IMG/VR virus record: IMGVR_UViG_3300032035_000006
Span: 1-46,353 of that record
DNA length: 46,353 nucleotides
Source: a virus
Taxonomy: Duplodnaviria; Caudoviricetes
Direction: 5' to 3' (one strand)
Shown here: positions 12,948 to 45,590 of the stretch, one piece after another
How positions within the stretch are numbered: position 1 is the first letter of the stretch
Layout: every line of letters starts with the position of its first letter
Program-made: the position numbers and the translations under genes
Notes under the pieces: generated by a model
What the model was told of the DNA's origin: nothing
Database searches by the model: none
Seen by the model: only the letters and a program-made list of their open reading frames with translations

Positions 12948-15900
12948 GTTCATCGGCCGCTGGCTGGAGGCCGGCGACGGGGAGAATCTCGCCCTGATGG
13001 ACGGCCCGATGCAGTTTCTCGGCGACGAGCCGAACACCGTGCTGGCCGAGTCGGGGTTTGACCGGGCGCTACTGTGGAAGTCCAGGTCCGCGGTCCGCTG
13101 GCTGATGGCCGCTTCCTGGCCGTATGAGCAGGCCGCGGGCAACATGGCCATCCCGGTCGTGTACTGGGGAATCAACGACGGCGACCCGTCCTGGCTGGCG
13201 GACCGGTGGTACCTGCCCGCCACCCCGCGCGACCTGGGCATCCTGGAGCGGGCCGGGCTGCCCGCCTGGGGCATCGAGACCCGGCACCAGCTGACCGACT
13301 TCGACGTGGTCGGCACCTCGGTCAGCTACCCGGTGCTGGCGATGAACTACGCCAAGACCCTGGCCATGAGCGGGGTGCCGCTGCGCTGGCGGGACCGCCA
13401 GGAGCAGGCCGCCGACTACCCCATGGTCATGGCCGGCGGGCAGGCTTACAGCGCGCCCGAGTTCATCTCCCCGATGCTGGACTGCTTCTGGCTGGGCGAG
13501 GTCGAGGACGAGCCGGGCAACCCCGGCGGGATCAGCGACTTCTGCGCTGTCATCGCGTCAATGAAAGCGGACGGCGCCTGGGCCGGGGACCGGCTCGGCT
13601 GCTACGAGCGGCTGGCCCGCCAGTTCCCGCACGTCTACTTCCCCCGGTTCACCGAGTTCACCTACAAGTACCAGGACCGCGGGCTGCCCGAGACCACCCT
13701 GATGGTCTCCGGGATGGCCTCGTCGCTGGGGCTGACGCATCGCGCCCGCCAGGTGCGCGACCTGAACGCCATCGCGCCGTTCACCCGGTCCCCGCTGCTG
13801 TACTCCGACCCGGGCATGGGCTCCGGCGACGTCGAGGTGGGCCGCGGCTGCACCTGCTGGTGCAGCTTCTGCAAGCTGAGCTGGGTGACTAAGCCGTACC
13901 GGCAGCGCTCGGTGCCCTACGTGCTGGCCTCGGCTAAGCGGTGGCGGCTGAACATGGGCTCGCTGGACATCAGCCTGGTCGCCCCCGACCCCCCGGTGCA
14001 CACCCAGCTCAAGGCGCTGATCGCCGGGATCATGGAGCAGGTCACGCCCTGGATCGACGCCAGCTCCATGCGGATCGACGACTTCACCTCCGAGGGCGCC
14101 GAGTTCGCCCGGCTGCTGAAGGCGGCCGGGCAGGACAGCCTGACCCTCGGCCTGGAGGCGGGCAGCCAGCGGCTGCGGGACGTGGCTGGCAAGGGCACCA
14201 GCGACGACGAGGTGGTCCGCGCGGTCACCGCCGCTATCAGGTGCGGCATCAGGAAGATAAAGATTTACTTCATCACCAACTGGCCCGGCGAGGAGGCCGC
14301 CGACGTCATGCGGGTGGTCGAGTTGGGCCGGCGGCTGGCCGACGTCCGCGAGTCGTTCGGCGCCGACGCCCGCGGGGTGCGCATCCAGTTCTCCTACACG
14401 CCGCTGATCGTGGAGGCGCAGACCCCGCTGCAGTGGTTCGCGGTCACCGCCCCGGACTACACCCTGCAGGCGGCGCTGTCCCAGCTGAGCGAGCTGCACA
14501 TCGACAAGAAGCTGGGCAGCAAGGCCAGCCCGGCCAAGCTCGCCTTCTTCCAGGCCTGCCAGCGGGCGTCCCGGCGGGCCGGGGAGGCCATCGTCGACGT
14601 GCTGGAGGAGCTGGACCGGGCCTCCTGGGGCGGGTTCCCCAAGGACATGCGCGAGCGGCTGGACGCGGCGCTGGCCCGGCGCGGGTTCCGCAACGGGCTG
14701 GAGGACCTGTTCGGCGAGCGGTACCGGGAGGACCTGTTCGGCTGGGAGCACATCAAGACCGGGGTGTCCGCCGGGCTGATGTGGCGGGCCTACCGGGACA
14801 TGGTCGACCTGCTGGAGAACACCGACGCGGAGACCTACGACGAGGACTGCGAGGGCGAGTACCGCGGCGTGGAGTGGGTGCAGCGGTGCGACGAGGGCTG
14901 CGCCGGCAACACCTGCGGCGCGTGCAGCCGGGAGGACCTGGAGCTGCGCCGGGACTACATCCGGGACGGCAGGCAGGAGCGGGACCTGCGCGCCGACCCG
15001 GTGACCCCGCTGGACCACTCCACGGTCGCCTGCCGCATCCGGGTCAAGACCAGCCGCCCGCGCGCGCACCGGATGGTCTCCAACGAGTTCTACCAGCACC
15101 TGATCCGCCGGGCCGCGTTCCGGGCCGTCGAGGAGATCGGGGGCTGCCCGCCGATCGCCGCGCACACCGTCCGGCTGGCCAGCGACAACATGGTCTACCG
15201 GGACCGCACCGACGGGGCCGAGTACATCGAGTTCGGCGTCACCCGGTGGGTCAGCCCGGCCCGCGCCGGGTGGATCGTCGAGGTGATGGGCCGCGAGCTG
15301 GCCCCCTGGATGGAGCTGGCCCCCGGGCCGGAGCCGTTCGCCCTGCTGCCCGCCGACGCGCAGCTGCCGGTCCGGCCGCTGAGCCTGTGGGAGCTGCCGG
15401 TCGACCGGGCCCCGGAGGACCTGGCCGCCCTGCTGGCCGCCTGGGACGCGGCGGAGAAGATTCCGGTCCGGCTCCGCAAAGAGAGCTTCTACGGGGGCGA
15501 GGTCCCCGAGGACGGTGACGCCAAGGACCACGTGCAGGACATGTGGGCGGTCCGCGACGGGCACCAGGTCAGGCTGCGGATGCTGCTGCGCGGCCGGCTC
15601 GGCCCCTACCAGGCGTACGCCGCCCTGGCCGGGATGCCCAGCTGGATCGGGGCCGCCCGGCAGGTCGCCACCCGGGTCGACTTCTTCCGCGGCGAGGGGC
15701 AGGCGTGCCTGCGCTGCGGCCGGGGCATCCCGGCCGGGCTGCTGGACGAAGTGTTCGACATGGACTTCTGCCCCCGGTGCAAGGACGAGGACGGCGGGCA
15801 GATTGTCGCCGGGCTCGCCCGGGCCCGCGTATTACCGGACGCGGCCTGGTCTTCCCTCGGGCCGCGCAATCGTCAACAGGTGGGGAGAGAGCTGTGGAAA

Positions 15901-21932: not shown

Positions 21933-22595
21933 GTGGAGTGTTTTGTTCTGGGCTGCGGTCGTCCGGTTAAGAGTGCAGGGCTGTGCCAGGCTCACAAGCG
22001 CAGGCTTGAGGTCCACGGAGATGTCCTGGCGCATGTGCCTATCCAGGTCCATCACCGAGGTCGGAAGGGCATCTGCGGCGTGCTTGGTTGTGGGCGCGTC
22101 TACCGGTCCAAGGGATTGTGCCGCGAGCACTACATGGAGAAGTTCGGGGCCGGCCTGAAGGACCAGCCCTGCTCTGTGCCGGAGTGCAAGCGCCCGCTTT
22201 ACCGCCGTGGCTGGTGCGCCGGTCATTATCAGCGGTGGAAGAAATACGGTGACCCGCTGGCCGGGGGCCCGGTGCGAGCTGTTCGGGGAACTGGCCCGTC
22301 CAAGTGGGAGAAAGACCAGGTTAGGCGCCTGGCAAAGGCCAAAATTAGCCAGGTTACGGGCGAGACCGCCGAGTACGTGACGATTATCCGAGGTGACCCG
22401 TGCTCGTACTGCGGGGCTCCGATGGAGCACGTTGACCACATCGTGCCGTTCGCGGCTGGAGGGCCTACGGACTGGACCAATCTGGCGCCATCGTGTGCCG
22501 GGTGCAACCACCGCAAGAGCGACAGGCCTCTGCTGCTCTTCTTGCTGGCGGAGGGGGGTGATGTGGATGGGGGAGCATCTAGACAAGCTGCTTGA
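21933..22595 (+). CDS. HNH endonuclease with three N-terminal Cys/His zinc repeats
   Basis: CxxxxC..GLC..H x3; CSYCG..HVDHIVP..GG..NLAPSCAGCNHRK. Confidence 0.9.
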   Translation: MECFVLGCGRPVKSAGLCQAHKRRLEVHGDVLAHVPIQVHHRGRKGICGVLGCGRVYRSKGLCREHYMEKFGAGLKDQPCSVPECKRPLYRRGWCAGHYQRWKKYGDPLAGGPVRAVRGTGPSKWEKDQVRRLAKAKISQVTGETAEYVTIIRGDPCSYCGAPMEHVDHIVPFAAGGPTDWTNLAPSCAGCNHRKSDRPLLLFLLAEGGDVDGGASRQAA

Positions 22596-24763
22596 GCTGG
22601 CCGCCGTTATCGACGTTGACGCTACCGACTCAGAAGCTCATGAGCATCTGTTGCGCGAGTGTCCGTGGTACCGCCATGTTGACGGCGGCGGTGCGGAGGA
22701 TGTTGAACGGCACTGCCAGCCGACCGAGGAATCGGGGGCCGTGCCGCGGCTGGTTGTCAAGCTGACCCCGCGGACGCCTGAGGCGTCAACGGTTCCGCAG
22801 CCGACTGTGCCGCCGGGAGGTCCCGGGCTCTGGCATGTGAAGGGGATGCAGCTTCCCCCGTTAGGCGTACATCCAGCATCTCTACAAGCATCTGGTGGCC
22901 CGGTACGGCAAGGAGAAGGCCTACGGCGTGGCCAAGGGCATCGTGGCTAAGTGGGCCGAGGGCATCGCCCCTGGCGGGAAGAAGGGCGGCAAGCCCCGGC
23001 ACACCCATCCCGATGTCCGGGCCGCGGCGCAGCGGAACATCGCCGAGTGGGAGCAGAAGCGGGCCCGGGCGCACGCCCAGCACGCCAAGACCGAGGCGCG
23101 GACAAAGAAGGGTCACGCGCTGGCCGCCACCATGGCCGAGCTGGCCGTCCGCAACCTCGGCTCGGACGGCCCCACCCCGCTGGACCACGTGACCAGCATC
23201 GCGCACGAGGTCGAGGAGATCGGCTGGGACCTGTCCCATGCCCGGGTGCACATCGACACCCTGGGCCGCAAGGCGGACGACGCGACCCGCGAGTTCAACG
23301 CCGAGCACGCCGACCGCCACCTGGACAAGGCGCTGACCAAGTGCGCCCGGTTCTTCGCTACGATAAGGGCTCACTACCCGGGCGAGGCCGCCGCGCTGGA
23401 CAAGCTGCTGGAGGCGCGGCGGGCGGTCGGGCTGGCCCGCACCCTGGAGCACAAGGCGACCACCCCGCACCTGGCCGACACGGTGGCCGGCAACGTGGCG
23501 CACGCCAAGGTGCACCTGGACATGTTCCGCGGCGCCAAGACCGACGAGGACCGCCGGTACAACCTGCAGCACGTGACCGGGCACATGGACAGCGCGGCCG
23601 AGCACCTGGCCAAGCTGATGCGGCACCTGGCCGCCAACTACCCCGGCGAGGCCAAGGCGATGGACCGGGTGTCCGCGCTGCGCGCCGAGGTCGGCCTGGC
23701 CGGGCAGACCGTGACCGCGCCGGGCGCCCAGCCCTACAGCGTGCCGTCTGCCACCGGGCTGCCGGCCCGCCAGTACGGGCTCTACCAGAAGCCGTCGGCC
23801 ACCGTCGCGCCGAGCCCGCCGCTGCCGCCGGACGTGCAGCTGCCCACCGCGGCGGAGGTCCGGGCGCTGCTGCCCCTGGTGCCGCCCGCCGGCGACGTGT
23901 CCCTGACCAGCACCGTGCGCAAGTTCCTGGAGGCCGCCGCGGTCAAGCTGGAGAAGGACACCCCGATCGAGGCGCTGACCGCGCTGCGCAGCGCCCAGAC
24001 GGCCATCTACTCGGCGCACAAGTCCGAGCTGGCCGACGCCAGCCCCGGCGTGTTCACCGCCAACATCTTCGCCCAGGCCCCGCCCGCCGAGCAGTCCTCC
24101 TCGACGACCTCCATGCGGGAGAGCCGGGGCCGCACCGAGGCCTACCGCTCGCTGGAGCAGAAGGTGGGCGCCCTGGCGGACCGCATCCGCCGCAAGTTCT
24201 TCCACGGGGTCTTCTCCGGCCCCTCCCAGCTCGGCCGGTTCACGGAGGCTGACATGAGCGCAATCGACCACCTCGCCGCGCTGGCCGGGACCGGGTACGT
24301 CACCGGGAAGGACGTCAGCTTCCCGGCCGAGTCCGACACCACCCAGGCGGTGCCGCTGGAGCAGCAGCGCGGCCCGTCCCCGTTCCGGCTCAGCCCCAAG
24401 GCGCACGCCGAGATCGCCGCCATGTCCCCGCTGGACCGGCTGAAGGTGACCCGGCAGCTGGAGGAGGCGACCCGGTTCCTGAGTGACGCGCACAAGCTGC
24501 AGGGCAGTCACCGGCTGCTGCAGGCCAAGTTCATCGCGGCCAGCGTGGGCGCCCTGGCGCTGGAGTCCGAGCTGGCCGACTGGATCAGGTCGGTCGGCAT
24601 GCAGACCAACAACACCAAGACCGCGCCGCACGAGCGGAAGACCGAGGCGGGCGGCAAGACCGTCGGGCAGCAGGACAACCGGCAGACCAGGCCCGCCGAC
24701 GCGGGCACCGGCCCGGCCCGGCTGACCGCCAGCTTGCGTCGATTACCCAGGGCAAACCGCTAG
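22567..24763 (+). CDS. Head-associated protein, reading frame broken by a TTA-containing 7-nt element at 22861-22867
   Basis: ORF1 ...GMQLPP joins ORF2 YIQHLYKHLVARYG...KWAEG...VRAAAQRNIAEWE in the +1 frame; internal ~70-aa duplication (HYPGEA/NYPGEA). Confidence 0.7.
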
Positions 24764-32014: not shown

Positions 32015-32758
32015 TCAGGCGCCGGGGACGGAGAACATCTCGGCCGCAGCCGCGCCCGGGTTCACCGTGACGGCGACCGGCGCGGGGTCCGCGATCGGCG
32101 TGGCGCCGTCCGGGCCGAGCAGCGGGCTGCCGTCTGCCGCGGTGGAGGCAACGCTCAGGTTGGCCGAGCCCGCGGCGACCGCGGAGAGCGGGAACTGGAT
32201 GTTGGCGATGCCGGTGGTCGCGTCGGCGCCGGCTACGGCGGCCCCGACGCCCAGGATGGCGGTGTTGTCAGACGTGGCAGTTGACAGCGTGCCTTCCGGG
32301 GGCGCTACCGGGTCCCCGTGGTCGTCCGTGAACGAGAGCACGGCTACGGCGTTGGTCGAGTCGACGGTCAGGGGCATGGGGTCTCCTTCGATAGTGATGG
32401 CAACTGAGGCGGCGGGGGCTCTCACGGCCCAGGCCGTTAGCGGCTTGGCCAGGGCAATGAGCTGGGCTGCATCGAGCGGGCCTTCCCCCTCGTGCATCAC
32501 GCTCGCGGCCACGAGCGCCACGGCCCTGGCTACCTGGGCGCCCAGGTGGGCGGCAGGCGGCGCGGGCGGGACGGGCGCGGGTGGCGGGGAGTCCGTGACC
32601 CAGGCTGACCAGGCGGCAGCCGTTTCGAGCACCTGGCTGGCGTCGACGTCACGTCCGGCCCAGAACTGCGCCGCGGCGACCATGGCCGCCTGGCGCACGC
32701 CGACAATGTCCGGGGCTGGCTGAGCGGGTTCCACGACTGGTATATCGGCTGCGGCCAC
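32015..32758 (-). CDS. Hypothetical protein with beta-rich (Ig-like?) C-terminal region
   Basis: GTG 8 nt after TACGCT; possible internal start (GAAGGAG..ATG at 32377). Confidence 0.6.
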   Translation of the reverse strand: MAAADIPVVEPAQPAPDIVGVRQAAMVAAAQFWAGRDVDASQVLETAAAWSAWVTDSPPPAPVPPAPPAAHLGAQVARAVALVAASVMHEGEGPLDAAQLIALAKPLTAWAVRAPAASVAITIEGDPMPLTVDSTNAVAVLSFTDDHGDPVAPPEGTLSTATSDNTAILGVGAAVAGADATTGIANIQFPLSAVAAGSANLSVASTAADGSPLLGPDGATPIADPAPVAVTVNPGAAAAEMFSVPGA

Positions 32759-32808: not shown

Positions 32809-33321
32809 TCACGTCCCGCCTGATCCGGTGAACGTTTCCGGGCTGCTCGGCGGCGGGCTGGCCGGGGTGGTGACCAGGCTCGGCGGCGGTGATGCCGTCG
32901 GTGATGCCGTCGGCGGGCCGGACGATGCCGGGGGGTTCGGCGTCAGACTGGGCGAGGGTGTCGTTTTTTCCGGGCTGGGGCCCGGCGCCCGCGGCGACGG
33001 GACCGGGCTGTACGTGGTCCCGGGCGGCGCGGGGAGCGGGCTGTAGGCGGCCGACGGGGCCGGGGTGGCTATCACCGGGGCGACCGACGCCGCGGGCCTG
33101 TGCGTGGCCCTGGAGGCCGTGTGCAGCGGCCCGGGGTACTTGCCCGGCCCGGGCGAGGCCTTGGCGGGCGGCGCCGGGGTGTTGCCGGACCGCGCAACAT
33201 AGGTGAATGCCCCCGCCGCCAGCGCGGCCAGCAGTACGATAAGCATGGCCACGGCGGGCACGGGGTGCCTGCGGTACTCGTCCCAGAACCAGCGCACCAG
33301 CTGTACATCGGAAATGCTCAC
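32809..33321 (-). CDS. Membrane-anchored Pro/Ser/Thr-rich protein
   Basis: TM segment VAMLIVLLAALAAGAFTYVA then low-complexity tail. Confidence 0.6.
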   Translation of the reverse strand: MSISDVQLVRWFWDEYRRHPVPAVAMLIVLLAALAAGAFTYVARSGNTPAPPAKASPGPGKYPGPLHTASRATHRPAASVAPVIATPAPSAAYSPLPAPPGTTYSPVPSPRAPGPSPEKTTPSPSLTPNPPASSGPPTASPTASPPPSLVTTPASPPPSSPETFTGSGGT

Positions 33322-33333
33322 GCTGTGGTCGGT

Positions 33334-33363
33334 CTTGACCTGGGTCAAGTACAAGCGTAGATT
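33334..33363 (+). promoter_or_regulatory. Promoter with overlapping palindromic operator
   Basis: TTGACC-17-TAGATT; CTTGAC-CTGG-GTCAAG over the -35. Confidence 0.82.
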
Positions 33364-33406
33364 TAACTGCAGACAAGCACGACGAGAGCAGGGCAGGAGG
33401 CACCGC

Positions 33407-35572
33407 GTGGACATCGAGCAGCTGATCTTCAACCGGAAGCACCGCGTGACGCGGCCGGCCGGGCATCACGGCGACGGCACCGTGCAGGCCCGCCAGCTCG
33501 ACGCCGTGCTCATGACGCTGGGCTTCAAGTGCTCCGGCGGCCTGCTGGCCGCGCTCGGCGCGATGCACCCGGCCTACGTCATCGACAAGGCCGTCCAGGT
33601 CATCGGCTGGGCCCGCGAGCTGTCCGGGGCGCATCGCCAGCACAACACCTACTTCATCGACTTCCCGCGCAACGTCCCGGACACCGAGGAGTTCTGGATG
33701 AGCCTGATCGAGCAGGCCGTCCGGGAGCGCGTGGGAGTGCGCGGCGGCGTGGCGGTCAACTCGCTGACCAACGAGGCGCGGTTCTTCGTGGACCTGCTGA
33801 GCCTGCCGGGCTACGGCACCTACCAGCACAGCTACGAGGACATGCTGGCCCGGCACGACGAGCTGATCCCGCTGCTCGGTGACCGGGTGACCGTCATCCA
33901 CCTGGGCCAGGACCAGGTCACCGAGGCCGGGGCGCTGTACGCCGAGCTGGCCGGCTCGGCCGTGCCGCTGTCCGGCGAGAGCCTGGACGCGCTGCGCGAG
34001 CTGGCCGACGCGTGCACCGGCATGCCGGTGCCGGAGGTGAAGGTCGCCGAGAACCTGGCCGTCATCAACGCGGTCCGGGTCCGCCAGGGCGCCGCCCCGT
34101 CCGTCCGCACGGCGACCGACGTGCTGCGGCTGGCCGCCGAGCTGTCCGGCTCGGACGTCACGCTGGCCACGCCGCCGAAGTTCGCCTCGTTCCCGCGCGC
34201 CCAGCGGCGCCTGCTGGCCGCGGCGCTGCGGCACGTGGGCCGCAGCGACGTCCCGCAGCGGGCTGAGCAGTTCAAGCGGCTCGGCGAGCGCATCCACCCG
34301 CACGAGTACCCGGCCGCGGCCGAGGTGTTCGCGGTGGCCCGCGGCGAGGTGCAGGCGCGCAGCCTGGCGTCGGTGGCCGAGTACGAGTTCCGCTCGGGCC
34401 GGGCCGACCTGGCCGCGCGGGTGCTGCTGGCCGCGCCGGGCATGCTGTGGCGTGCCGCGGACCGGATTCTGCGCGAATCCCGGCCGGGCATGAGGGCGGA
34501 CGCGCTGTATCACCTGGAGGCCTCGGCCCCGCGGGTGTCCGGCCGGGTGCTGCTGGGCGTGCGCGAGCACCTGATGAACCGCGCCCGCAAGGGCGGCGCG
34601 CCGCGGGTGTTCGTCAACCGGCGCGGCCGGGCCTGGGTGACCGGCGACCCGCGCGTGCCGCTGGACGAGGGCGCCGTGCGCGACGTGCTGGGCGTCATCG
34701 ACGCCGAGGTGCTACGCCGGCTGCCGGACACCGGCACGCTGGTCATCGACCCGGCCATCGCCGGGGCCGCGCTGCCGCTCAGCGGCAAGGGCACCCCGGA
34801 CGGCCTGGGCGTGTGGCCGCGCGGCTCGGTCATCCCGGTGGGCGGTGACCTGCTCCGGTTCTTCGTGTACTGGAAGCAGCGCTCCCAGCGCACCGACTTC
34901 GACCTGTCCGCGCTGCTCACCGACGAGCAGTTCGGCAACATGTCGCACGTGAGCTGGACCAGCTACCACGCCGACGGCGCGGTCTACTCCGGCGACATCA
35001 CCGACGCCACCAACGGCGCCACCGAGTTCATCGACATCACGCTGGGCGTCCGGCGCGGCTACGTCATCCCGCAGGTGTACGTGTACTCCGGCGAGGGCTT
35101 CTCCGAGGTCGAGGAGAACTTCTTCGGCTTCATGACCCGCGAGGGCATGCAGGCCGGAGCCCCGTTCGAGGCGCGCACGGTGCGGATGAAGGGCGCGCTG
35201 GCCGGTGAGCACCGCACCGCCATGCCGCTGGTGTTCTACCGCGGCGAGGACGGCAAGTGGTACGCCAAGTGGGTGCACCTGTACCTGCGCGGTGCCCTCA
35301 ACTTCTTCGGCGGCGCCCAGGTCGAGGACAACAAGGTCACCACCGCTGGCCTGGCGCGCGGCATCATGGAGCGCGAGTACCTGCGGGTGGGCTACATCGC
35401 TGAGGCCCTCAAGGCCAAGGCCCAGTTCTTCATGGTGCCGCAGCTGTTCGCTGACGGCGGTGCCCCGGAGGGCTCGGAAGTGACCTACATCGGTATCGAG
35501 CAGCCGGAGGGGCTGCCGCGGGACGCCCGGGTGTTCACCCTGGAGAACCTGGGCAGCCTGGTCCCGGCTTAG
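33407..35572 (+). CDS. ROT/TROVE-like repeat protein with C-terminal TerD-like domain (SCO0854-like, RING-less)
   Basis: SD AGGAGG; YFIDFPRNVP, TATDVLRLAAELSGSD, FKRLGERIHPHEY, PGMLWRAADRIL; C-terminal FFVYWK..DFDLSA..YSGDITDA..GATEFIDI. Confidence 0.7.
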   Translation: MDIEQLIFNRKHRVTRPAGHHGDGTVQARQLDAVLMTLGFKCSGGLLAALGAMHPAYVIDKAVQVIGWARELSGAHRQHNTYFIDFPRNVPDTEEFWMSLIEQAVRERVGVRGGVAVNSLTNEARFFVDLLSLPGYGTYQHSYEDMLARHDELIPLLGDRVTVIHLGQDQVTEAGALYAELAGSAVPLSGESLDALRELADACTGMPVPEVKVAENLAVINAVRVRQGAAPSVRTATDVLRLAAELSGSDVTLATPPKFASFPRAQRRLLAAALRHVGRSDVPQRAEQFKRLGERIHPHEYPAAAEVFAVARGEVQARSLASVAEYEFRSGRADLAARVLLAAPGMLWRAADRILRESRPGMRADALYHLEASAPRVSGRVLLGVREHLMNRARKGGAPRVFVNRRGRAWVTGDPRVPLDEGAVRDVLGVIDAEVLRRLPDTGTLVIDPAIAGAALPLSGKGTPDGLGVWPRGSVIPVGGDLLRFFVYWKQRSQRTDFDLSALLTDEQFGNMSHVSWTSYHADGAVYSGDITDATNGATEFIDITLGVRRGYVIPQVYVYSGEGFSEVEENFFGFMTREGMQAGAPFEARTVRMKGALAGEHRTAMPLVFYRGEDGKWYAKWVHLYLRGALNFFGGAQVEDNKVTTAGLARGIMEREYLRVGYIAEALKAKAQFFMVPQLFADGGAPEGSEVTYIGIEQPEGLPRDARVFTLENLGSLVPA

Positions 35573-35894: not shown

Positions 35895-35997
35895 CCCCGC
35901 GGCCATCGGAGCGCTTCCTTTGTCGAGGCGCTGCTGAGGGTCGATACGGAGGGAGGTGAACAGGTTGTCCGAGGCGCTGCCTCTCTCGTGTGAGGGG
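35895..35997 (+). ncRNA. Degenerate repeat unit 4
   Basis: GCGG-CCAT-CGGAGCGCT-TCCTT 5' motif kept; 3' strand poorly paired. Confidence 0.5.
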
Positions 35998-36009
35998 AGG
36001 TGATGCCCC

Positions 36010-37638
36010 ATGAGTACCCCAGGACCAGGGCAAGGTTCCTATGAGTCACGTCTCCAGCCGCCGGGCGGTATGGGAGTCACGACGCAGGGGTTCGGTTTAG
36101 GGTCAGGAAGGATATGTCCTGCCTGAGACGCAGGCTCTTCCGAAACCACCTCCTGAAGGAGAGAATTTTGCGGTAGGTGTCCCGTACTTCTTAGCGATTC
36201 CTACCATTTGCCACGCCCTACCGGGACTCCTTAATCCTGGGAAGTCTTCAGAGACGACCCGGTCTCCATCCGCCAGCTGGTCACCATGCGCAGGCGGGAC
36301 GGCCAGGCCAGGGCGCTGTTCCGGCTGCTGACCAAGCCGCTGCTGGCCAGCCTCAAGAACGCCGACGTGGTGCCGGTCGACGGCATGGTGGGCGGGGTGG
36401 ACGAGGCCAAGTTCTGCAAGGACCTGCTGTTCCTGCCCGCTAACGCCGGCGGCATGACGCATTCCTTCTCCCGGTTCGTCAAGCAGATGCTGCTGGCATT
36501 GTTCAACGGGTTCTCGGCCTGGGAAATGATCTACTGGATTCCTAAGACCGGGCCAAATAAGGGGAAAATCACCCTCCGGGAAATCGACTGGCGCCCGTCT
36601 GAGACCCTGACATTCCTGCTCGACGGCCAGGGGAAGTGGAACGGGTTCCGGCAGCGCACCTTCTTTCAGGGCCGGACCATTGATGTCAAGCTCCCCAGGG
36701 AAACTGCGCTCTATTACGCGCACGAGGAGGCCGAGCGCCCGTTCTACGGCGTGTCGATGTTCGAGTCGGCGTTCTACCACTACGACAAGAAGGAGAAGCT
36801 GTACTACATCGCCCACCTGGCGGCGCAGCGGGCCGCGGTGGGGCTCCGGATCGGCACCATGGTGCCCAACGCCCCGGCCGCGGACAAGGACCACTTCATC
36901 GCGGCGCTGAGCCAGCTGGGCCTGGCCCAGTACATCGCGGTGCCGTCGGCGGACTGGACCGTGCAGACCCTGAACGAGGCGGCGGCCCGGTTCGACTTCC
37001 TGGGCCTGATCAACCACCACAATTCGCAGATGTCCAAGTCGGTGCTCGCGCAGTGGTTCGACAACGAGCAGGGCGGCGGCCAGGGCGACAGCACGCTGGT
37101 GGATTTCGGCAAGCAGGACGACGTGACCTTCTTCCTGATGCTGGAGGGCATCCTGGAGGAGATGGCCGAGATGATCAACACGTATATCTTCCCGAGGTTC
37201 GTGGACTGGAATTTCGGCAGCGGGAAATACCCGGAGTTCAAGTGGGGCACGCTGACCAGCGAGCAGAAGGCGGCGGTGCAGGACACGTTCGATAAGATCG
37301 CCGCGGCGGGAATGCAGGCCAACGTCACGCCCGAGTTCATGCTGGACCTGGAGCAGAGAATGGCGGTCGACTTCGGGTTCGACATCGACTACGACAAGAT
37401 CAAGAAGGACCGGGAGCAGCAGGCCAAGCTCATGGCGCAGCAGGGCGCCATGGGCGGGCCGCCGATGCCCATGCCGCCGGGGGCGGGTCAGGGCCCGGCG
37501 GCTGGCGGGCCGGGGGCGGGGCCTCCCGCGCCGCCTCCGTTCCCGCCGCCGGGCATGGCGCCCCCGCCGCCGGGCGGGCCGGGCCTGGGCGGCGGCCCGG
37601 GACCGGGGCCGCCGCAGCTGCAGGGCCGGGGCTCGTGA
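36010..37638 (+). CDS. Portal protein (DUF935/Mu gp29-like); about 534 aa after three TTA-associated hops
   Basis: SD GGAGGTGA and ATG 36010; MLLALFNGFSAWEMIY, PFYGVSMFESAF, INHHNSQMSKSVL, IFPRFVDWNFG; first gene of the head module. Confidence 0.85.
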
Positions 37639-38462
37639 GCGCGGAGGAGGCGCTGGCCGCGCTGGCCGCGGACCTGGTCGAGGAGATCGCCGCCGGGCGC
37701 GCGGCCGAGCTGGCCGCCGCGGCGGCCCGGGAGAGCCCCAACCCGGCGCCCGCCCCGCTGCTCGGCCCGCCGTGGCGGGAGGCGCCGCCGCGCGCGGGAG
37801 CCTGGGCGGTGCACCCGCAGCTGGGCGGGCACCTGATCCGGCATCCGGGGGACACCATCTCCTTCCACGCCTACCGGCACCTGGTGGAGCCGCGCGAGCA
37901 GCTGCCGCAGGACGATTCGGGGGCACGTGGCGGAGTCGGAGCTGGGGGCGCGGGTAGCGCAGGCGGTGGCCGCCGCGCTGGGAAGCGCCGCCGGTTACCT
38001 GGAGCTGGTGACCCGGAACAACCCGCACGGCAGCGTGGCCCAGCTGCTGGCCCGGCCGGACGTCACCGCGGTGCTCACCGAGGCGCTGGACGAGGCCAGG
38101 GCGGACGCCGAGGAGCTGGTCCGGCAGGGCTGGTACTTGGGGGCGCCGGCGTCCGCCCTGGCCCCCGCCCAGCTGGAGCGGCTGCTGGCCGACGTCGGCC
38201 GCACCTTCGACGCGCTGCCGCACCTGCACGTCCGCATCCGCCGGGCGCATGCCTCGGTCGGGCAGCGGGCGTTCGTCCCGGGGGCGACCGAGCCGGGCGC
38301 CAGCCCGGCCATGGAGGCGGCGGCCGAGCGCGCCGCGGCGGTCCGCCAGGCGGTGCTCGACTGGGCCCGCTCCGCGGCGCTGAGGGCGCGCATGACGGTC
38401 TCGACGGCGGAGGGCTCCGCCAGGACGCTGGCCGCGCTGCAGGCCGCCCACGCGCTGCGTGA
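37635..38462 (+). CDS. Hypothetical protein (first ~95 codons protein-like; rest overlaps next gene)
   Basis: GTGA coupling to portal; GC3 bias lost after ~37920. Confidence 0.45.
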   Translation: MSAEEALAALAADLVEEIAAGRAAELAAAAARESPNPAPAPLLGPPWREAPPRAGAWAVHPQLGGHLIRHPGDTISFHAYRHLVEPREQLPQDDSGARGGVGAGGAGSAGGGRRAGKRRRLPGAGDPEQPARQRGPAAGPAGRHRGAHRGAGRGQGGRRGAGPAGLVLGGAGVRPGPRPAGAAAGRRRPHLRRAAAPARPHPPGACLGRAAGVRPGGDRAGRQPGHGGGGRARRGGPPGGARLGPLRGAEGAHDGLDGGGLRQDAGRAAGRPRAA

Positions 38463-38994: not shown

Positions 38995-39252
38995 ATGGCT
39001 AGCCGCACCCGGCGCTGGTTCGCGGACAGCTCGGTCTCCTACGCGCTGGCCGCCATCGCGCTGATCGAGTACGCCCGCGACCACCGGGGCGAGCACTTCG
39101 AGTTCGGCCCGCTGGACGCTGAGTCCATGCGGGCCGGCGGGCTGACCGTGAGCGGGGAGGACCTGGACGGGGTGGCCGGGCTGCTGGCCGAGATCCCCGG
39201 GCTGACCGAGTACCGCAACGGGGCGGAGGAGGCGCCGGTCCCGATAGCCTGA
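38995..39252 (+). CDS. Hypothetical protein
   Basis: SD GGAGG, GC3 bias. Confidence 0.65.
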   Translation: MASRTRRWFADSSVSYALAAIALIEYARDHRGEHFEFGPLDAESMRAGGLTVSGEDLDGVAGLLAEIPGLTEYRNGAEEAPVPIA

Positions 39253-39254
39253 GC

Positions 39255-41081
39255 GTGTCCGGGTGGGTGGTCTGCGAGGAGGAAACGGACCTGGCCCTCG
39301 CGCAGGTCCGCGGGTACCGGCGTGTCGAGCGAGGAAGGCCCGAGTGGGTCAGGCCGTATGCCAGGCGCTGGTGGATACCCCACCCGGACTGGGTGAAGGG
39401 CCAGCAGCGGTGGGTCACCGCCGGCGAGGCCGGCTGGCGCCGGGAGGGTGCGGAGAACTGGGCGAAGGGCCAGCAGGCCGGGCGCGCGGCCGAGGCCGCC
39501 GAGGATGTCCGCGAGGGCGAGACCGACCTGCCGCGCTGGGCCCGGACGCCGGAGAACGGCGAGCCGCTGACCGCCGAGGAGCGCCCGGGCGCCGAGGGGG
39601 TGGTCGGCCAGGGCACCATGCACGAGCGGCCGGTGCACGGCTACGCGCGGCCCAACCCCGAGCGGCTGGCCCGGCCGCCGCGCAAGGGCGGCTACGCCCG
39701 GCCCGAGGACCATCCGTTCTTCAAGCAGCATGACTTCTCCGAGAAGAACATCGTCGCCGCCTACGACGCCACCACCGCCTCGCACCGGGGCCAGGGGATG
39801 CGCTGGTACCCGGACATGGCCCGGCTGGCCTGGGTGCTCGGCGGCGGGGACGCCGAGGCCGGCGCCAAGCAGCTGTCGGCCTACTCCCCGCAGGCCGGCT
39901 GGCCGCTGAACATGTTCAACGCGGCCCGCGCGCTGGCCGAGGGCCGCCCGCTGCAGAAGGGCGAGGGCATCTTCCTGCCCGCGCACACCTCGATGTCCAC
40001 CGCGGCGTTCGCCGGCAAGCACTACGACCAGGTGTTCAACGGGCCGAAGACCCACGCGTTCGCCCACCTGGGCGAGCAGGGCCTGGACCACCCCGGGGAC
40101 CCGATCGGCGCGGTGGTGGTCGACCGGCACGCGGTCAACGTGGCCGGCGGCGGCAACCTGACCGACGAGGAGGTGGGGTCCGCCCCGATCGGCAAGGAGC
40201 CGTTCTATTCCCACGTCGCCGACATGTACCGCAACGCGGCCCGGACCATCTCCGAGCGCGACGGCGAGGAAATCTCCCCGTCCGAGCTGCAGGCCATCAC
40301 CTGGCTGCGGCAGCAGGAGCTGAACGAGGCCCGGACGAGGGCCGCCGCCGCGGCCGGGGAGAAGAAGGCCAAGGGCGCGATGGGCCTGTACACCGCCATG
40401 AAGAACCACTGGGCCCGGTGGGAGCAGTACGCCCGCGAGCACGGCATCCGCACCGAGTTGGGCTCTACCGCGCTGGCCCCCAAGCCCATCACCGCGGCCG
40501 AGGCACGCGGCGACAGCAAGCCGGTGTCGGCCGCCGAGTTCTGGGACACCGCGACCCGGGGCCGTGACATGATCGGCTCGATGCTGTCTAACTCCAGCCC
40601 GCCGACCGGCCTGACCGACAACTGGGATGCGCTGGTCCAGCAGGCCTGGACGGCGGCGCAGGAGTCCTGGGGCGGCATGACCATCGACGCGCACACCGGG
40701 GTGCCGCTGTCCGGCAACGAGAACCTGTGGGCCGTCACCGGCAAGCTGCCGTTCGGCTACCGGACCATCGAGATCCCGGAGACGTCCACCGAGGCCCAGT
40801 TCAAGCGGGCGATGGACCGGGCGCTGAAGGAGTTCGGGCCGCTGCTCGCGGCGTCCGGCTACCACCTGGGCATCTTCCACGACGACGAGAAGGGCACCAT
40901 CGAGTTCGACCCGGTCATCATCGCGAGCAGCCTGGAGGACGCCAACGCCCTGGGCGCGTACACTGGGAATATCGGGGGCGCCTACAACTTCGCCGACGGT
41001 AACGGATATTTTCCACCACATATTCGAGAAGAACAGCCAGGTCCTGCACAGTCGTCTCCTAGCCCATCTCCTGGGGCGTAA
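39255..41081 (+). CDS. Putative virion-associated protein with HhH DNA-glycosylase-like domain
   Basis: VRGYRR..GRPEWVRPYAR; RWYPD, LSAYSPQAGWPLN, GPKTHAF, VVDRHA, LQAITW. Confidence 0.55.
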   Translation: MSGWVVCEEETDLALAQVRGYRRVERGRPEWVRPYARRWWIPHPDWVKGQQRWVTAGEAGWRREGAENWAKGQQAGRAAEAAEDVREGETDLPRWARTPENGEPLTAEERPGAEGVVGQGTMHERPVHGYARPNPERLARPPRKGGYARPEDHPFFKQHDFSEKNIVAAYDATTASHRGQGMRWYPDMARLAWVLGGGDAEAGAKQLSAYSPQAGWPLNMFNAARALAEGRPLQKGEGIFLPAHTSMSTAAFAGKHYDQVFNGPKTHAFAHLGEQGLDHPGDPIGAVVVDRHAVNVAGGGNLTDEEVGSAPIGKEPFYSHVADMYRNAARTISERDGEEISPSELQAITWLRQQELNEARTRAAAAAGEKKAKGAMGLYTAMKNHWARWEQYAREHGIRTELGSTALAPKPITAAEARGDSKPVSAAEFWDTATRGRDMIGSMLSNSSPPTGLTDNWDALVQQAWTAAQESWGGMTIDAHTGVPLSGNENLWAVTGKLPFGYRTIEIPETSTEAQFKRAMDRALKEFGPLLAASGYHLGIFHDDEKGTIEFDPVIIASSLEDANALGAYTGNIGGAYNFADGNGYFPPHIREEQPGPAQSSPSPSPGA

Positions 41082-43923: not shown

Positions 43924-44027
43924 CAACGGGGACGAGTTCCTGGCCCTGCTTCAGGCCGCCTGAGCGCGTTCACTTCCCGGTAACCCGGAGGGCTGCCCGG
44001 CGGCCCGGCGCGCCCGATAGCGGGGGC

Positions 44028-45590
44028 ATGACTGACTTCACCCGCAGGACCTTCATCAGAGCTGGCGTGCTCGGCGGCACCGTCGCGCTGCTGCCCTGGG
44101 GCGGCCGGGCCGTGGCCGGCACCGCCTCGGCCGCGGCTGGCGCGGTGCAGCCCGGCCAGCCCGTCCCGACCGGCGGCAAGATGCTCGCCCCGATGGCGTT
44201 CATGTTCCCCGACCTCCCCCCGTTCGTGCCGGACCCGGACCCCGACACCGCCACCACCGAGCTGATGGCGCTGGCTAACACCCTGCTCGATCCCAACGTC
44301 ACCGCCGGGCCGGGAAACCGGGACCAGGTGGGCAGTTTCGGCAGCTCGCTGACGTATCTCGGGCAATTCATCGACCACGACAACTTCCTGGACGGCGAGC
44401 CGCAGCCGACCGCGTTCTTCGGCCGCGACAACCAGGGCAACCTGCTCGACCCGGACGGCAGCATCGTCTTCAACCTGGAATCATTCAGGTTTGACCTGAG
44501 CAGCGTGTACGGTGGCGGGCCGGCGGTCTCGCCGCAGCTCTACGCCAGCGACGGGGTGCGGATGCTGGTCCAGGAGGACAACGGCAACGGGGTCCGGGAC
44601 CTGCCCCGCGACAGCTCCGGGGTCGCGATCCTCGTCGAGCACCGCAACGACGAGAACGAGATCATCGCCCAGGTGCACGTCGCGTTCCTGAAGTTCCACA
44701 ACGCGGTGGCCGACGCCATGCCCGGCGCGGGCTTCGACCAGGTGGCCGCCACCGTGCGCCGGCATTACCAGTGGATCGTGATCCACCAGTTCCTGCCGCA
44801 CATCTGCGGGGACGGCGTGGTCTCCGGCCTGCTCGACGGGTCCATCCCCAGCCTGTACAAGGCCGGCAACCCGAACGCGCCGCTGGTCCCGGTCGAGATG
44901 CAGGTCGCCGCCTACAGGTTCGGCCACAGCATGGTCAGGAAGGCCTACGAGCTGACGGTCAGCACCGGCAAGCTCCAGGTCTTCAACGGGACTGCCGCTG
45001 ACCTGCACGGAGGCCGCCCGATCCCCAGCGGGAGGCAGATCGACTGGGGCAACTTCGTGCTGCCGCTGCAGCGTCCCGAGAACGCCGCGCACTTCAACAA
45101 CCCGCGGTTCATCGACACCCTGGTCAGCTCCGGCCTGTTCACGCTGCCGATCGGCGGCCCCGGCGGCGCCGAGGCGTCCGGGTCGACGGTGCTGCCGTTC
45201 CGCAACCTGCTCAGGGGCTTCCGGTACGGCCTGCCCAGCGGGCAGGACGTCGCCGCGGCGATGGGCGAGACGGTGATCAGCCCCGCGGACGCGCTGCCGG
45301 ACAACGTCGACAGCGCCGCCATCACGGCCGGGTTCTCGGGCGGCACGCCGCTGTGGTTCTACGTCCTGCGGGAGGCGGAGCTGGGCGGCGGGCTGACCCT
45401 GGGCCGGACCGGAGCCCGGCTGGTCGCCGACTCGTTCCTGGGCTCCATGACCGCGGACAAGGACGGGCTGCTGCACGACAACAGCCCGACCAGCCGGCGG
45501 TGGCAGCCCGTCCCGCCGATCGCCCCGGCCCCGGGGCAGTTTGGCCTGGAGGATCTCCTCGTGTTCGCCGGCGTGGCCGCCCGGCCCTGA
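44028..45590 (+). CDS. Tat-secreted heme peroxidase (peroxidase-cyclooxygenase / An_peroxidase family)
   Basis: TRRTFIR Tat signal; YLGQFIDHD, RNDEN..IAQVH..FLKFHN, AAYRFGHSMVR, GLPSGQDVA, TPLWFYVLREAE. Confidence 0.9.
   Translation: MTDFTRRTFIRAGVLGGTVALLPWGGRAVAGTASAAAGAVQPGQPVPTGGKMLAPMAFMFPDLPPFVPDPDPDTATTELMALANTLLDPNVTAGPGNRDQVGSFGSSLTYLGQFIDHDNFLDGEPQPTAFFGRDNQGNLLDPDGSIVFNLESFRFDLSSVYGGGPAVSPQLYASDGVRMLVQEDNGNGVRDLPRDSSGVAILVEHRNDENEIIAQVHVAFLKFHNAVADAMPGAGFDQVAATVRRHYQWIVIHQFLPHICGDGVVSGLLDGSIPSLYKAGNPNAPLVPVEMQVAAYRFGHSMVRKAYELTVSTGKLQVFNGTAADLHGGRPIPSGRQIDWGNFVLPLQRPENAAHFNNPRFIDTLVSSGLFTLPIGGPGGAEASGSTVLPFRNLLRGFRYGLPSGQDVAAAMGETVISPADALPDNVDSAAITAGFSGGTPLWFYVLREAELGGGLTLGRTGARLVADSFLGSMTADKDGLLHDNSPTSRRWQPVPPIAPAPGQFGLEDLLVFAGVAARP

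Follow-up and report, generated by a model that had tools for sequence, protein, structure and literature searches.

Very few natural systems of ribosomal bypassing have been described, and reviews treat a regulatory role of bypassing as an open question. In the large terminase gene of Streptomyces phage phiHau3 there are two 10-nucleotide (nt) inserts, 7-nt inserts are present in two prophages, and 3 of 100 terminase genes carry such inserts (PMC10732093). The full-length terminase was made in Streptomyces, the junction peptide was detected by mass spectrometry in E. coli with UAA replacing UUA, and bypass rose to 225% when the gap held a +1 stop (PMC10732093). The gap in T4 gene 60 blocks nicking by MobA and often outlives this nuclease (bioRxiv 2022.08.31.505936). 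'Stop-hops' are a further context-free parallel (PMC5009743), and for the Bxb1 primase a UUA-linked bypass is suggested only (PMC12646305). Here we describe a 46,353-nt stretch of DNA from a tailed virus (IMG/VR record IMGVR_UViG_3300032035_000006, positions 1 to 46,353; hereafter the window) in which the portal gene is interrupted by three short inserts, each beginning with TTA, that are very probably passed over by ribosomes in three consecutive hops. The window is part of a soil phage of about 150 kb and 70% GC; record G006, which is 100% identical to it over 17,016 bp and reaches beyond it, is the same phage. An earlier note on this DNA had proposed the serial hops and had likened them to a single UUA bypass in the phiHau3 terminase gene, which has two inserts and not one.

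The three sites are as the earlier note had given them, GGT-TTAG-GGT (36094-36103), TTC-TTAGCGA-TTC (36188-36200), and TCC-TTAA-TCC (36228-36237), and they hold the only TTA triplets present in any frame within 36010-36285. When 24 nt (7 + 10 + 7) are skipped from the ATG at 36010, the frame joins the open reading frame (ORF) 36286-37638 and gives the peptide that had been written out in that note, a product of 534 amino acids (aa) with a single terminal stop; the ORF is a portal gene by its matches to PHROG 113 (E 4e-26) and Pfam Portal_Mu (E 5e-31). Decoding the TTAs in frame 0 leads to a stop after 9, 46, and 70 codons at sites 1, 2, and 3, respectively, the first being the early stop at 36124 already pointed out; the -1 frame reaches a stop after 26, 14, and 33 codons, and the TAG or TAA in the +1 frame at each site does block a simple slip. 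A lone TTA with a matched codon is not a rare pattern, since an identical triplet at a skip of 4, 7, 10, or 13 nt was found for 7 of the 62 plus-strand TTAs in the window, the three portal sites included. When the gene was aligned to intact homologues by a procedure blind to TTA, the sole frame breaks in the portal gene were the three TTA sites, and that they fall exactly there is beyond chance. Contigs from 4 of 4 public sequencing runs, which possibly are the source samples, span the three inserts with zero differing letters, and the same three inserts are present in 10 further stored loci, which are near-identical and not independent. The inserts are therefore not an assembly error, and the observation of three inserts in the portal gene is confirmed as real.

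The colinear N-terminus without the 24 nt that had been expected in homologues was found: intact homologues run QGFGQEGY...PYFLPFATPYRDSWEVFRDDP, continuous across the junctions, and the three junction motifs are gap-free in 80, 81, and 77 of the 83 homologues with a long N-terminus among the best 120 listed. The first 84 portal residues are the same at 76 positions as those of the nearest intact gene, L030, and synonymous differences from L030 far outnumber non-synonymous ones in the segments (Table 1), which argues that the hop-joined frame is selected; judged by these substitutions, all four pieces of the portal gene are under purifying selection. At site 3 the codon is AGC in 25 of 41 intact genes and TCC in 6 of 41, and here both flanks are TCC.

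Table 1. Coordinates of the portal gene, its upstream region, and other features of the window.
Feature	Position	Strand	Remarks
Portal Shine-Dalgarno (SD) GGAGGTGA	35996..36003	+	strong; duplex -18.1 kcal/mol vs -3.4 ahead of Met 36286
Portal coding segment 1	36010..36096	+	29 codons, take-off codon GGT last; vs L030: 14 synonymous/4 non-synonymous
Coding gap 1	36097..36103	+	7 nt: TTA, G, landing codon GGT; +1 frame TAG
Portal coding segment 2	36104..36190	+	29 codons, take-off codon TTC last; vs L030: 18 synonymous/2 non-synonymous
Coding gap 2	36191..36200	+	10 nt: TTA, GCGA, landing codon TTC; +1 frame TAG
Portal coding segment 3	36201..36230	+	10 codons, take-off codon TCC last; vs L030: 7 synonymous/0 non-synonymous
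Coding gap 3	36231..36237	+	7 nt: TTA, A, landing codon TCC; +1 frame TAA
Portal segment 4 and body	36238..37638	+	Met 36286 becomes residue 85 once the segments are joined (534 aa); segment 4 vs L030: 4 synonymous/2 non-synonymous
CGAT-type motif, putative phage promoter element	35942..35946	+	63 nt ahead of portal start
Leader common to insert-bearing portals	35951..36009	+	81% over 72 nt to the 3' end of the L011 HNH cassette
Possible 15-codon upstream ORF in leader	GTG 35956 to TGA 36003	+	
Anti-SD in leader	35973-35983	+	predicted pairing with portal SD
HNH endonuclease gene	21933..22595	+	Pfam HNH E 1.3e-11; immediately 5' of the fourth-break gene, which it overlaps
Fourth TTA-led break, unknown gene	22858..22867	+	7-nt gap TTAGGCG after CCG; landing codon mismatched at its first base
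In-frame TTA	15832..15834	+	radical SAM protein conservation ends there, at the same place in 7 distinct phages

Inserts of this kind recur throughout the phage family. With an alignment that allowed skips and gave no reward for TTA, 24 inserts of 4-30 nt were found in the portal genes of 12 lineages; 24 of 24 were TTA-led and all lay N-terminal of the conserved MRR motif. The landing codon repeats the take-off codon in 17 of them and is its wobble partner in two; in the remaining five it is mismatched, four times at position 1 and once at position 3. One insert, in a relative, is 12 nt long, in frame, and free of standard stops. In the whole family there are 38 insert sites of 2-30 nt, 24 in portal genes and 14 in other genes, and 37 of the 38 begin with TTA. 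When frame breaks were scanned without regard to TTA in 15 records, 21 of 22 breaks backed by at least three genomes were TTA-led (14 distinct TTA sites, and one non-TTA site in a distant record of 59% GC), as were 3 of 4 backed by two genomes and 7 of 190 backed by one. The 14 sites outside portal genes are in the unknown gene with the fourth break of the window, a tail-region gene, a major capsid gene, an exonuclease gene, and tape-measure-sized genes, the last being named by size and position only; the window's own phage has at least seven insert sites. The fourth break joins the ORFs at 22393 and 22895 and is backed by four independent intact genomes, and this gene had no match in Pfam, annotated phages, or Atlas. 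In G006 a tape-measure-sized gene with two inserts, which has an endonuclease VII gene directly 5', carries an 11-nt TTA-led insert between TGG codons (32244-32254), and a tail-region gene is shifted by +2 at TTT-TTA (24196-24201), where a 217-aa HNH-like ORF overlaps the gene start; the HNH-like motif is absent upstream in 8 intact orthologues of this tail-region gene. The major capsid gene of G008 has a 7-nt GTT-TTAA-GTT insert at about codon 13 (71692-71701), with no endonuclease found upstream, and because a high-copy protein thus lies behind a hop, efficient bypass is implied. Carriers are scattered over the portal tree (8 changes for 8 rows), a single carrier clade is rejected (approximately unbiased test p 1e-34, for 25 of the tree rows), and the nearest tree neighbours of most carriers are intact portals that are 88-98% identical. 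On the minus strand, an ambiguous 2-nt TTA break without a matched landing codon was seen near the start of a tail-region gene (G002:117065 and G004:11976), which may be a mis-called start.

UUA itself behaves like a stop in this family. A codon model was used to filter the TTAs, which left 58 queries, 29 of them with at least two orthologues; these 29 come from about a dozen gene families and are not all independent. None of the 29 in-gene TTAs was read in frame: 21 were exactly at the stop of the orthologues, 4 were at most 3 codons away, and 4 were before the point of divergence, whereas for 12 control triplets at most 3 were at an orthologue stop and most were read in frame. Without the coding-frame filter 90 of 160 TTAs were read in frame, seemingly mostly in antisense frames. 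TTA was also the commonest sense codon at orthologous stop positions backed by at least two genomes, with 17 of 461 (TCA 0, GGA 1, TGG 3), and tape-measure-sized genes share an end motif that is followed by TGA in four records and by TTA at the same codon in four. The TTA that ends the conserved part of the radical SAM protein is stop-like or part of an overlapping DNA motif. At 15829-15835 and at 826-832 of the window, GTATTA(C) stands where conservation of the radical SAM protein ends, and in relatives TGTGGA repeats follow, which may resemble DnaA boxes; this GTATTA(C) could serve as a TTA stop, as a promoter, or as part of an origin. By comparison of gene ends, UUA appears stop-like in all the family members tested, including phages with intact portals and genes of the replication region. 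UUA may be made unreadable by the host state, the host lineage, or a phage product. A tRNA-Leu(UAA) was not found in the window, as the earlier note had said, or in 9 of 9 relatives that carry 33-37 tRNAs, but this is weak evidence because these relatives likewise lack tRNAs for Val(TAC), Ala(TGC), and Leu(TAG). Magritte, a cultured relative, has 1 TTA in 84 annotated genes picked from 250 features, which is uninformative. One relative encodes a ribosomal protein L7/L12 (L125:14642-15022 of G002; Pfam E 2e-24), and in G009 alone there is a 253-aa protein with a release-factor GGQ-like domain (L207:1147-1908; RF-1 family, 57 bits); as a shared release factor the latter was rejected, being an unrelated fusion in one record.

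Bypassing has to be weighed against other ways of reading the same letters. If the 5' region were unused, the portal would begin at Met 36286, or the gene would be dead. It is true that 23 of the best 120 homologues listed are called from the same Met, and that in a structure model of an intact homologue, which resembles portal proteins such as G20C, residues 1-82 are of low confidence, so that the model does not show that the N-terminus is needed. However, there is neither an SD nor a promoter motif before 36286, the hop-joined frame is under strong purifying selection in all four segments, and the short calls for which DNA was at hand are insert-bearing genes. Moreover, upstream of this Met, where a lack of similarity would have spoken against the earlier note, many N-terminal residues are invariant in 53 intact homologues, and we consider both a start at Met 36286 and a dead gene very improbable. 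Many of the 23 homologues called from this Met may be additional insert-bearing genes. Removal of the gaps in RNA, by polymerase skipping between 3-nt repeats or by splicing, would fit the 3-nt direct repeat that bounds each gap, but the repeats are always codon-aligned, TTA is in frame 0, and wobble pairs (GGC/GGT) occur, all of which point to re-pairing of a tRNA; a self-splicing element would not fit into gaps of 2-30 nt, and this route is scarcely credible. We give just as little credence to single-base frameshifts with stop readthrough, which would restore the frame and add two or three residues per junction. All three gaps do shift the frame by +1, but that frame holds a stop at 3 of 3 sites, the junction motifs are gap-free in most homologues (77-81 of 83), and among relatives there are gaps of 12, 15, 18, and 30 nt, which cause no shift, and of 2, 5, 8, 11, and 14 nt, which shift the frame by +2. 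The codon alignment of every repeat and the selection on the pieces led us to reject a transposon footprint. From the alignments and the codon patterns taken together, bypassing is very probably the route by which the portal is decoded.

The region upstream of the portal gene sets the carriers apart. In 29 of 31 intact portals a CGAT motif stands 8-9 nt before the start, mostly without an SD. Across the family this motif is at a spacer of 8 for 99 gene starts and at 9 for 15, other spacers having 1-10 and control motifs being flat. It is a putative promoter for leaderless mRNA, and the family-wide peak at spacer 8 suggests many leaderless transcripts. In the window, CGAT motifs were also seen 8-10 nt before SD-less starts at 37912-37929, 39241-39257, 44014-44030, and 22380-22395. 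A leader of 60 nt precedes the portal in 11 of 11 carrier lineages with upstream DNA and in 0 of 47 intact portals. L113 was counted together with the carrier L290, with which it shares length and upstream sequence, and a search with the leader pattern gave 15 matches, of which two (L220 and L228) are not portal genes. In 7 of 7 carriers tested there is an ATG with an SD of -16 to -19 kcal/mol, compared to a mean of -2.7 in 31 intact portals (p 4e-5). The leader is predicted to fold so as to mask this SD; covariation in the hairpin was no higher than in shuffles and no Rfam family matched. An HNH motif was found directly 5' of 7 of 11 insert-bearing portals and of 0 of 44 intact ones; Pfam HNH scored over the cut-off in the upstream genes of five carriers and weakly in one, and the upstream genes of L011 and L100 are homologous at 38-56% identity and gave no Pfam HNH match. 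When motif, Pfam, and homologues were combined, an HNH-type endonuclease gene was directly 5' in 9 of 11 insert-bearing portal lineages. For the other hop genes (n = 10), an HNH or endonuclease VII gene was upstream in six and a 3' remnant in one. The 5' part of the gene is itself unusual: of the 54 conserved residues within portal codons 1-60, 34 differ synonymously, the GC content at third codon positions (GC3) there is 0.4-0.6 compared to 0.87-0.97 in G001, and 5' GC3 is low across carriers (p 0.005), though one later section of the gene diverges strongly as well. The idea that the inserts were gained independently as adaptive regulation was dropped once the shared leader and the upstream HNH genes appeared.

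A reasonably likely explanation of the whole is that the portal is read by UUA hops over inserts that owe their origin to a homing endonuclease. UUA would leave the A site empty or terminate slowly, so that the ribosome stalls, and the peptidyl-tRNA would then release the take-off codon and re-pair at the matched codon 7, 10, and 7 nt on, three times in all; the +1 stops at the gaps would remove slipped ribosomes and the strong SD borne by the cassette would offset the losses over three hops. As for how the inserts arose, the upstream genes and the shared leader indicate that they probably came about as protection against a homing endonuclease once encoded just 5' of the portal. Its cassette would have landed 5' of the portal and cut the first ~270 nt of portal genes without the cassette, and carriers would have survived the cutting by means of inserts and many synonymous changes in the 5' portal, the inserts with TTA first and the preceding codon last being those that stayed viable. 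The window phage would later have lost the endonuclease and retained the leader and inserts, as T4 kept the gene 60 gap, and any dependence of portal synthesis on an unreadable UUA would be a side effect.

Several observations, to which the low confidence of the modelled N-terminus belongs, weigh against this explanation. An SD-like element stands out at site 2 alone (-9.6 kcal/mol, with 1 of 41 intact genes as strong), those at sites 1 and 3 being ordinary (15 and 34 of 41 as strong); there is no strong stem-loop round the UUA sites (z -0.35 versus shuffles), and the portal 5' region folds more weakly per base than 39 of 41 intact homologues. As Hau3- or T4-like stimulators are lacking, high efficiency over three hops is unexplained. 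If UUA terminates efficiently enough for tape-measure-sized genes to end at it, termination should compete with hopping, and yet the major capsid gene of one relative contains a hop. Some of the TTAs at gene ends may belong to promoter-like motifs. A T follows the TTA in 19 of the 27 gene ends listed, nearly all as TTATG. TTA was counted 3 times in 122,327 conserved codons with 3.6 expected, so that scarcity alone is uninformative, and neither a family-wide release factor nor a peptidyl-tRNA hydrolase was found (an RF-1 domain was present in one record of 10, and none of 5 had Pth). In G006 a 15-nt insert between GCT codons at about 32279-32293, found by eye, begins with AGA and holds TGA. The link with endonucleases also has exceptions: in the window there is no endonuclease gene 5' of the portal and the only remnant is the last 72 nt of the cassette, L267 has none upstream of its portal, 3 of the 10 other hop genes lack one upstream, and the exonuclease gene of the window, although preceded by an endonuclease VII motif, has no insert.

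The hops might also have been selected for what they do. The earlier note saw in them a serial gate by which portal is made only when the tRNA-Leu(UAA) of the host is scarce, a bldA-type sensor that ties assembly to development. Decoding of UUA would indeed abort the portal at every site, tRNA-Leu(UAA) was not found in the tRNA-rich relatives, the hop genes are mostly virion genes, and signs of an actinobacterial host exist: an Rpf-like transglycosylase and DivIVA-like domains, best RecA matches to Nonomuraea (69%) and Streptomyces (66%), and the TerD-like gene, whose best matches are Streptomyces plasmids. This gene, of 789 aa at 33203-35572 directly 5' of the portal region, is 48-50% identical to these best named matches, and it was matched in 5 of 401 genomes of one phylum at 43-53%. 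The host is, however, known only to phylum level: a scan of species genomes gave two matches only, at 50-51% identity and in metagenome bins, plasmid searches with L7/L12, RecA, the TerD-like gene, and the tRNA region gave hints at the same level, and no host flank was seen in G015, which is labelled a provirus (59% GC). The developmental role of bldA may be confined to Streptomycineae (PMC4255298). Moreover, TTA is stop-like family-wide, also in replication-region genes and in genomes with intact portals, sister phages with 91-98% identical portals have no inserts, the inserts go with endonuclease genes, and no integrase was found among 150 of the 190 proteins scanned in the complete relative G002. 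So, of what the earlier note proposed, serial bypassing stands as the best reading, whereas a purpose-built developmental gate is unlikely. It is also doubtful that the inserts are now kept as a timer or throttle within the infection, whereby the phage would at some stage render UUA unreadable and losses over three hops, downstream of a strong, hairpin-gated SD, would set the timing and amount of portal. The three inserts have outlasted the endonuclease in the window phage, the strong SD and ATG are found in all carriers tested, among 14 capsid rows the SD is strongest in the one gene that has a hop, and the leader hairpin would mask the portal SD. But the SD and hairpin arrive with the endonuclease cassette and are thus not independent evidence of tuning, SD and hop are not linked in tape-measure-sized genes, no tRNA nuclease or release factor shared by the family was found, and the rarity of precise insert deletion explains persistence equally well.

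Whatever their use, the 38 natural sites, with gaps of 2-30 nt, matched and mismatched landings, and gapless sister genes of 91-98% identity, provide a test set for the rules by which ribosomes take off and land. In this family gene calling cuts portal, capsid, and tape-measure-sized genes short, and genes ending in TTA are called too long. The major capsid genes of G003, G008, G011, and G012 seem to start with ATT or ATC after a good SD (window 45755), and a haem peroxidase-family gene with a twin-arginine-like N-terminus lies between the head decoration and major capsid genes (window 44028-45590; close homologues 60-79% identical).

In a literature search that lacked most subscription papers we found no published bypassing in portal genes, no UUA hops tied to endonucleases, and no phage UUA stops. 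Like the terminase genes of phiHau3, StrepC.1, and S. catenulae, the portal gene has UUA right after the take-off codon, a matched landing codon, and 7- or 10-nt gaps, and there are serial hops in one essential packaging gene with colinear homologues without gaps. Unlike in the Hau3 type, where the gene is the terminase, portal, capsid, tape-measure-sized, tail, and nuclease genes are affected here, three gaps lie within 140 nt, and there are 38 sites of 2-30 nt compared to 4 sites in 3 of 100 terminase genes. There is also no consistent internal SD or stem-loop, UUA is stop-like at gene ends, there is the link with endonucleases, and the host is not known to be Streptomyces. As the stem-loop of the Hau3 type was not found, the portal case is not filed as a plain member of this type. 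The link between UUA hops and endonucleases suggests that the Hau3 'developmental sensor' type may share a selfish-element origin. In this respect the portal case of this family resembles T4 gene 60 and mobA: a non-coding insert lies in an essential gene, in 9 of 11 carrier lineages (though not in the window) just 3' of a free-standing HNH gene, it is scattered among near-identical phages, the endonuclease is often decayed or lost while the gap stays, and a stop or hungry codon follows the take-off codon of a matched pair, although UUA here is stop-like by comparison and not a standard stop. It differs from the ~50-nt gap of gene 60, a topoisomerase gene with a take-off stem-loop and mini-SD, in that the portal gaps are 7-10 nt long without a stem-loop, the family's gaps (2-30 nt) are mostly unrelated in sequence and occur at many sites in several genes, two nuclease families (HNH and endonuclease VII) are involved, the gene is not split, and the trigger is UUA and not UAG. 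With the byps of Magnusiomyces capitatus mitochondria (PMC5009743) it shares the many inserts, several per gene, the unused A-site codon, the small dependence on context, and some imperfect pairs of take-off and landing codons; the byps are 27-55 nt long, compared to the much shorter phage gaps, and here the ribosomes are bacterial and the sites are clustered near 5' ends beside endonuclease genes. In labyrinthulean mitochondria and peDinoflagellate plastids UUA is a termination codon (PMC12574857) and likewise stands where orthologues end, but here it is found in a bacterial phage at only a few percent of gene ends, with no altered release factor found and with the same codon triggering hops. 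What is new here is that serial short hops, a stop-like UUA, and a linkage to endonucleases are found in one phage family. A broader view, on which we are evenly divided, is that UUA as a dead, stop-like codon could be a general licence to hop, that TTA-led inserts which copy a codon could be invisible to the ribosome without RNA signals, and that two endonuclease families could repeatedly plant immunity inserts in essential genes, which would make this a bacterial counterpart of byps that unites Hau3, T4 gene 60, and a new phage genetic code.

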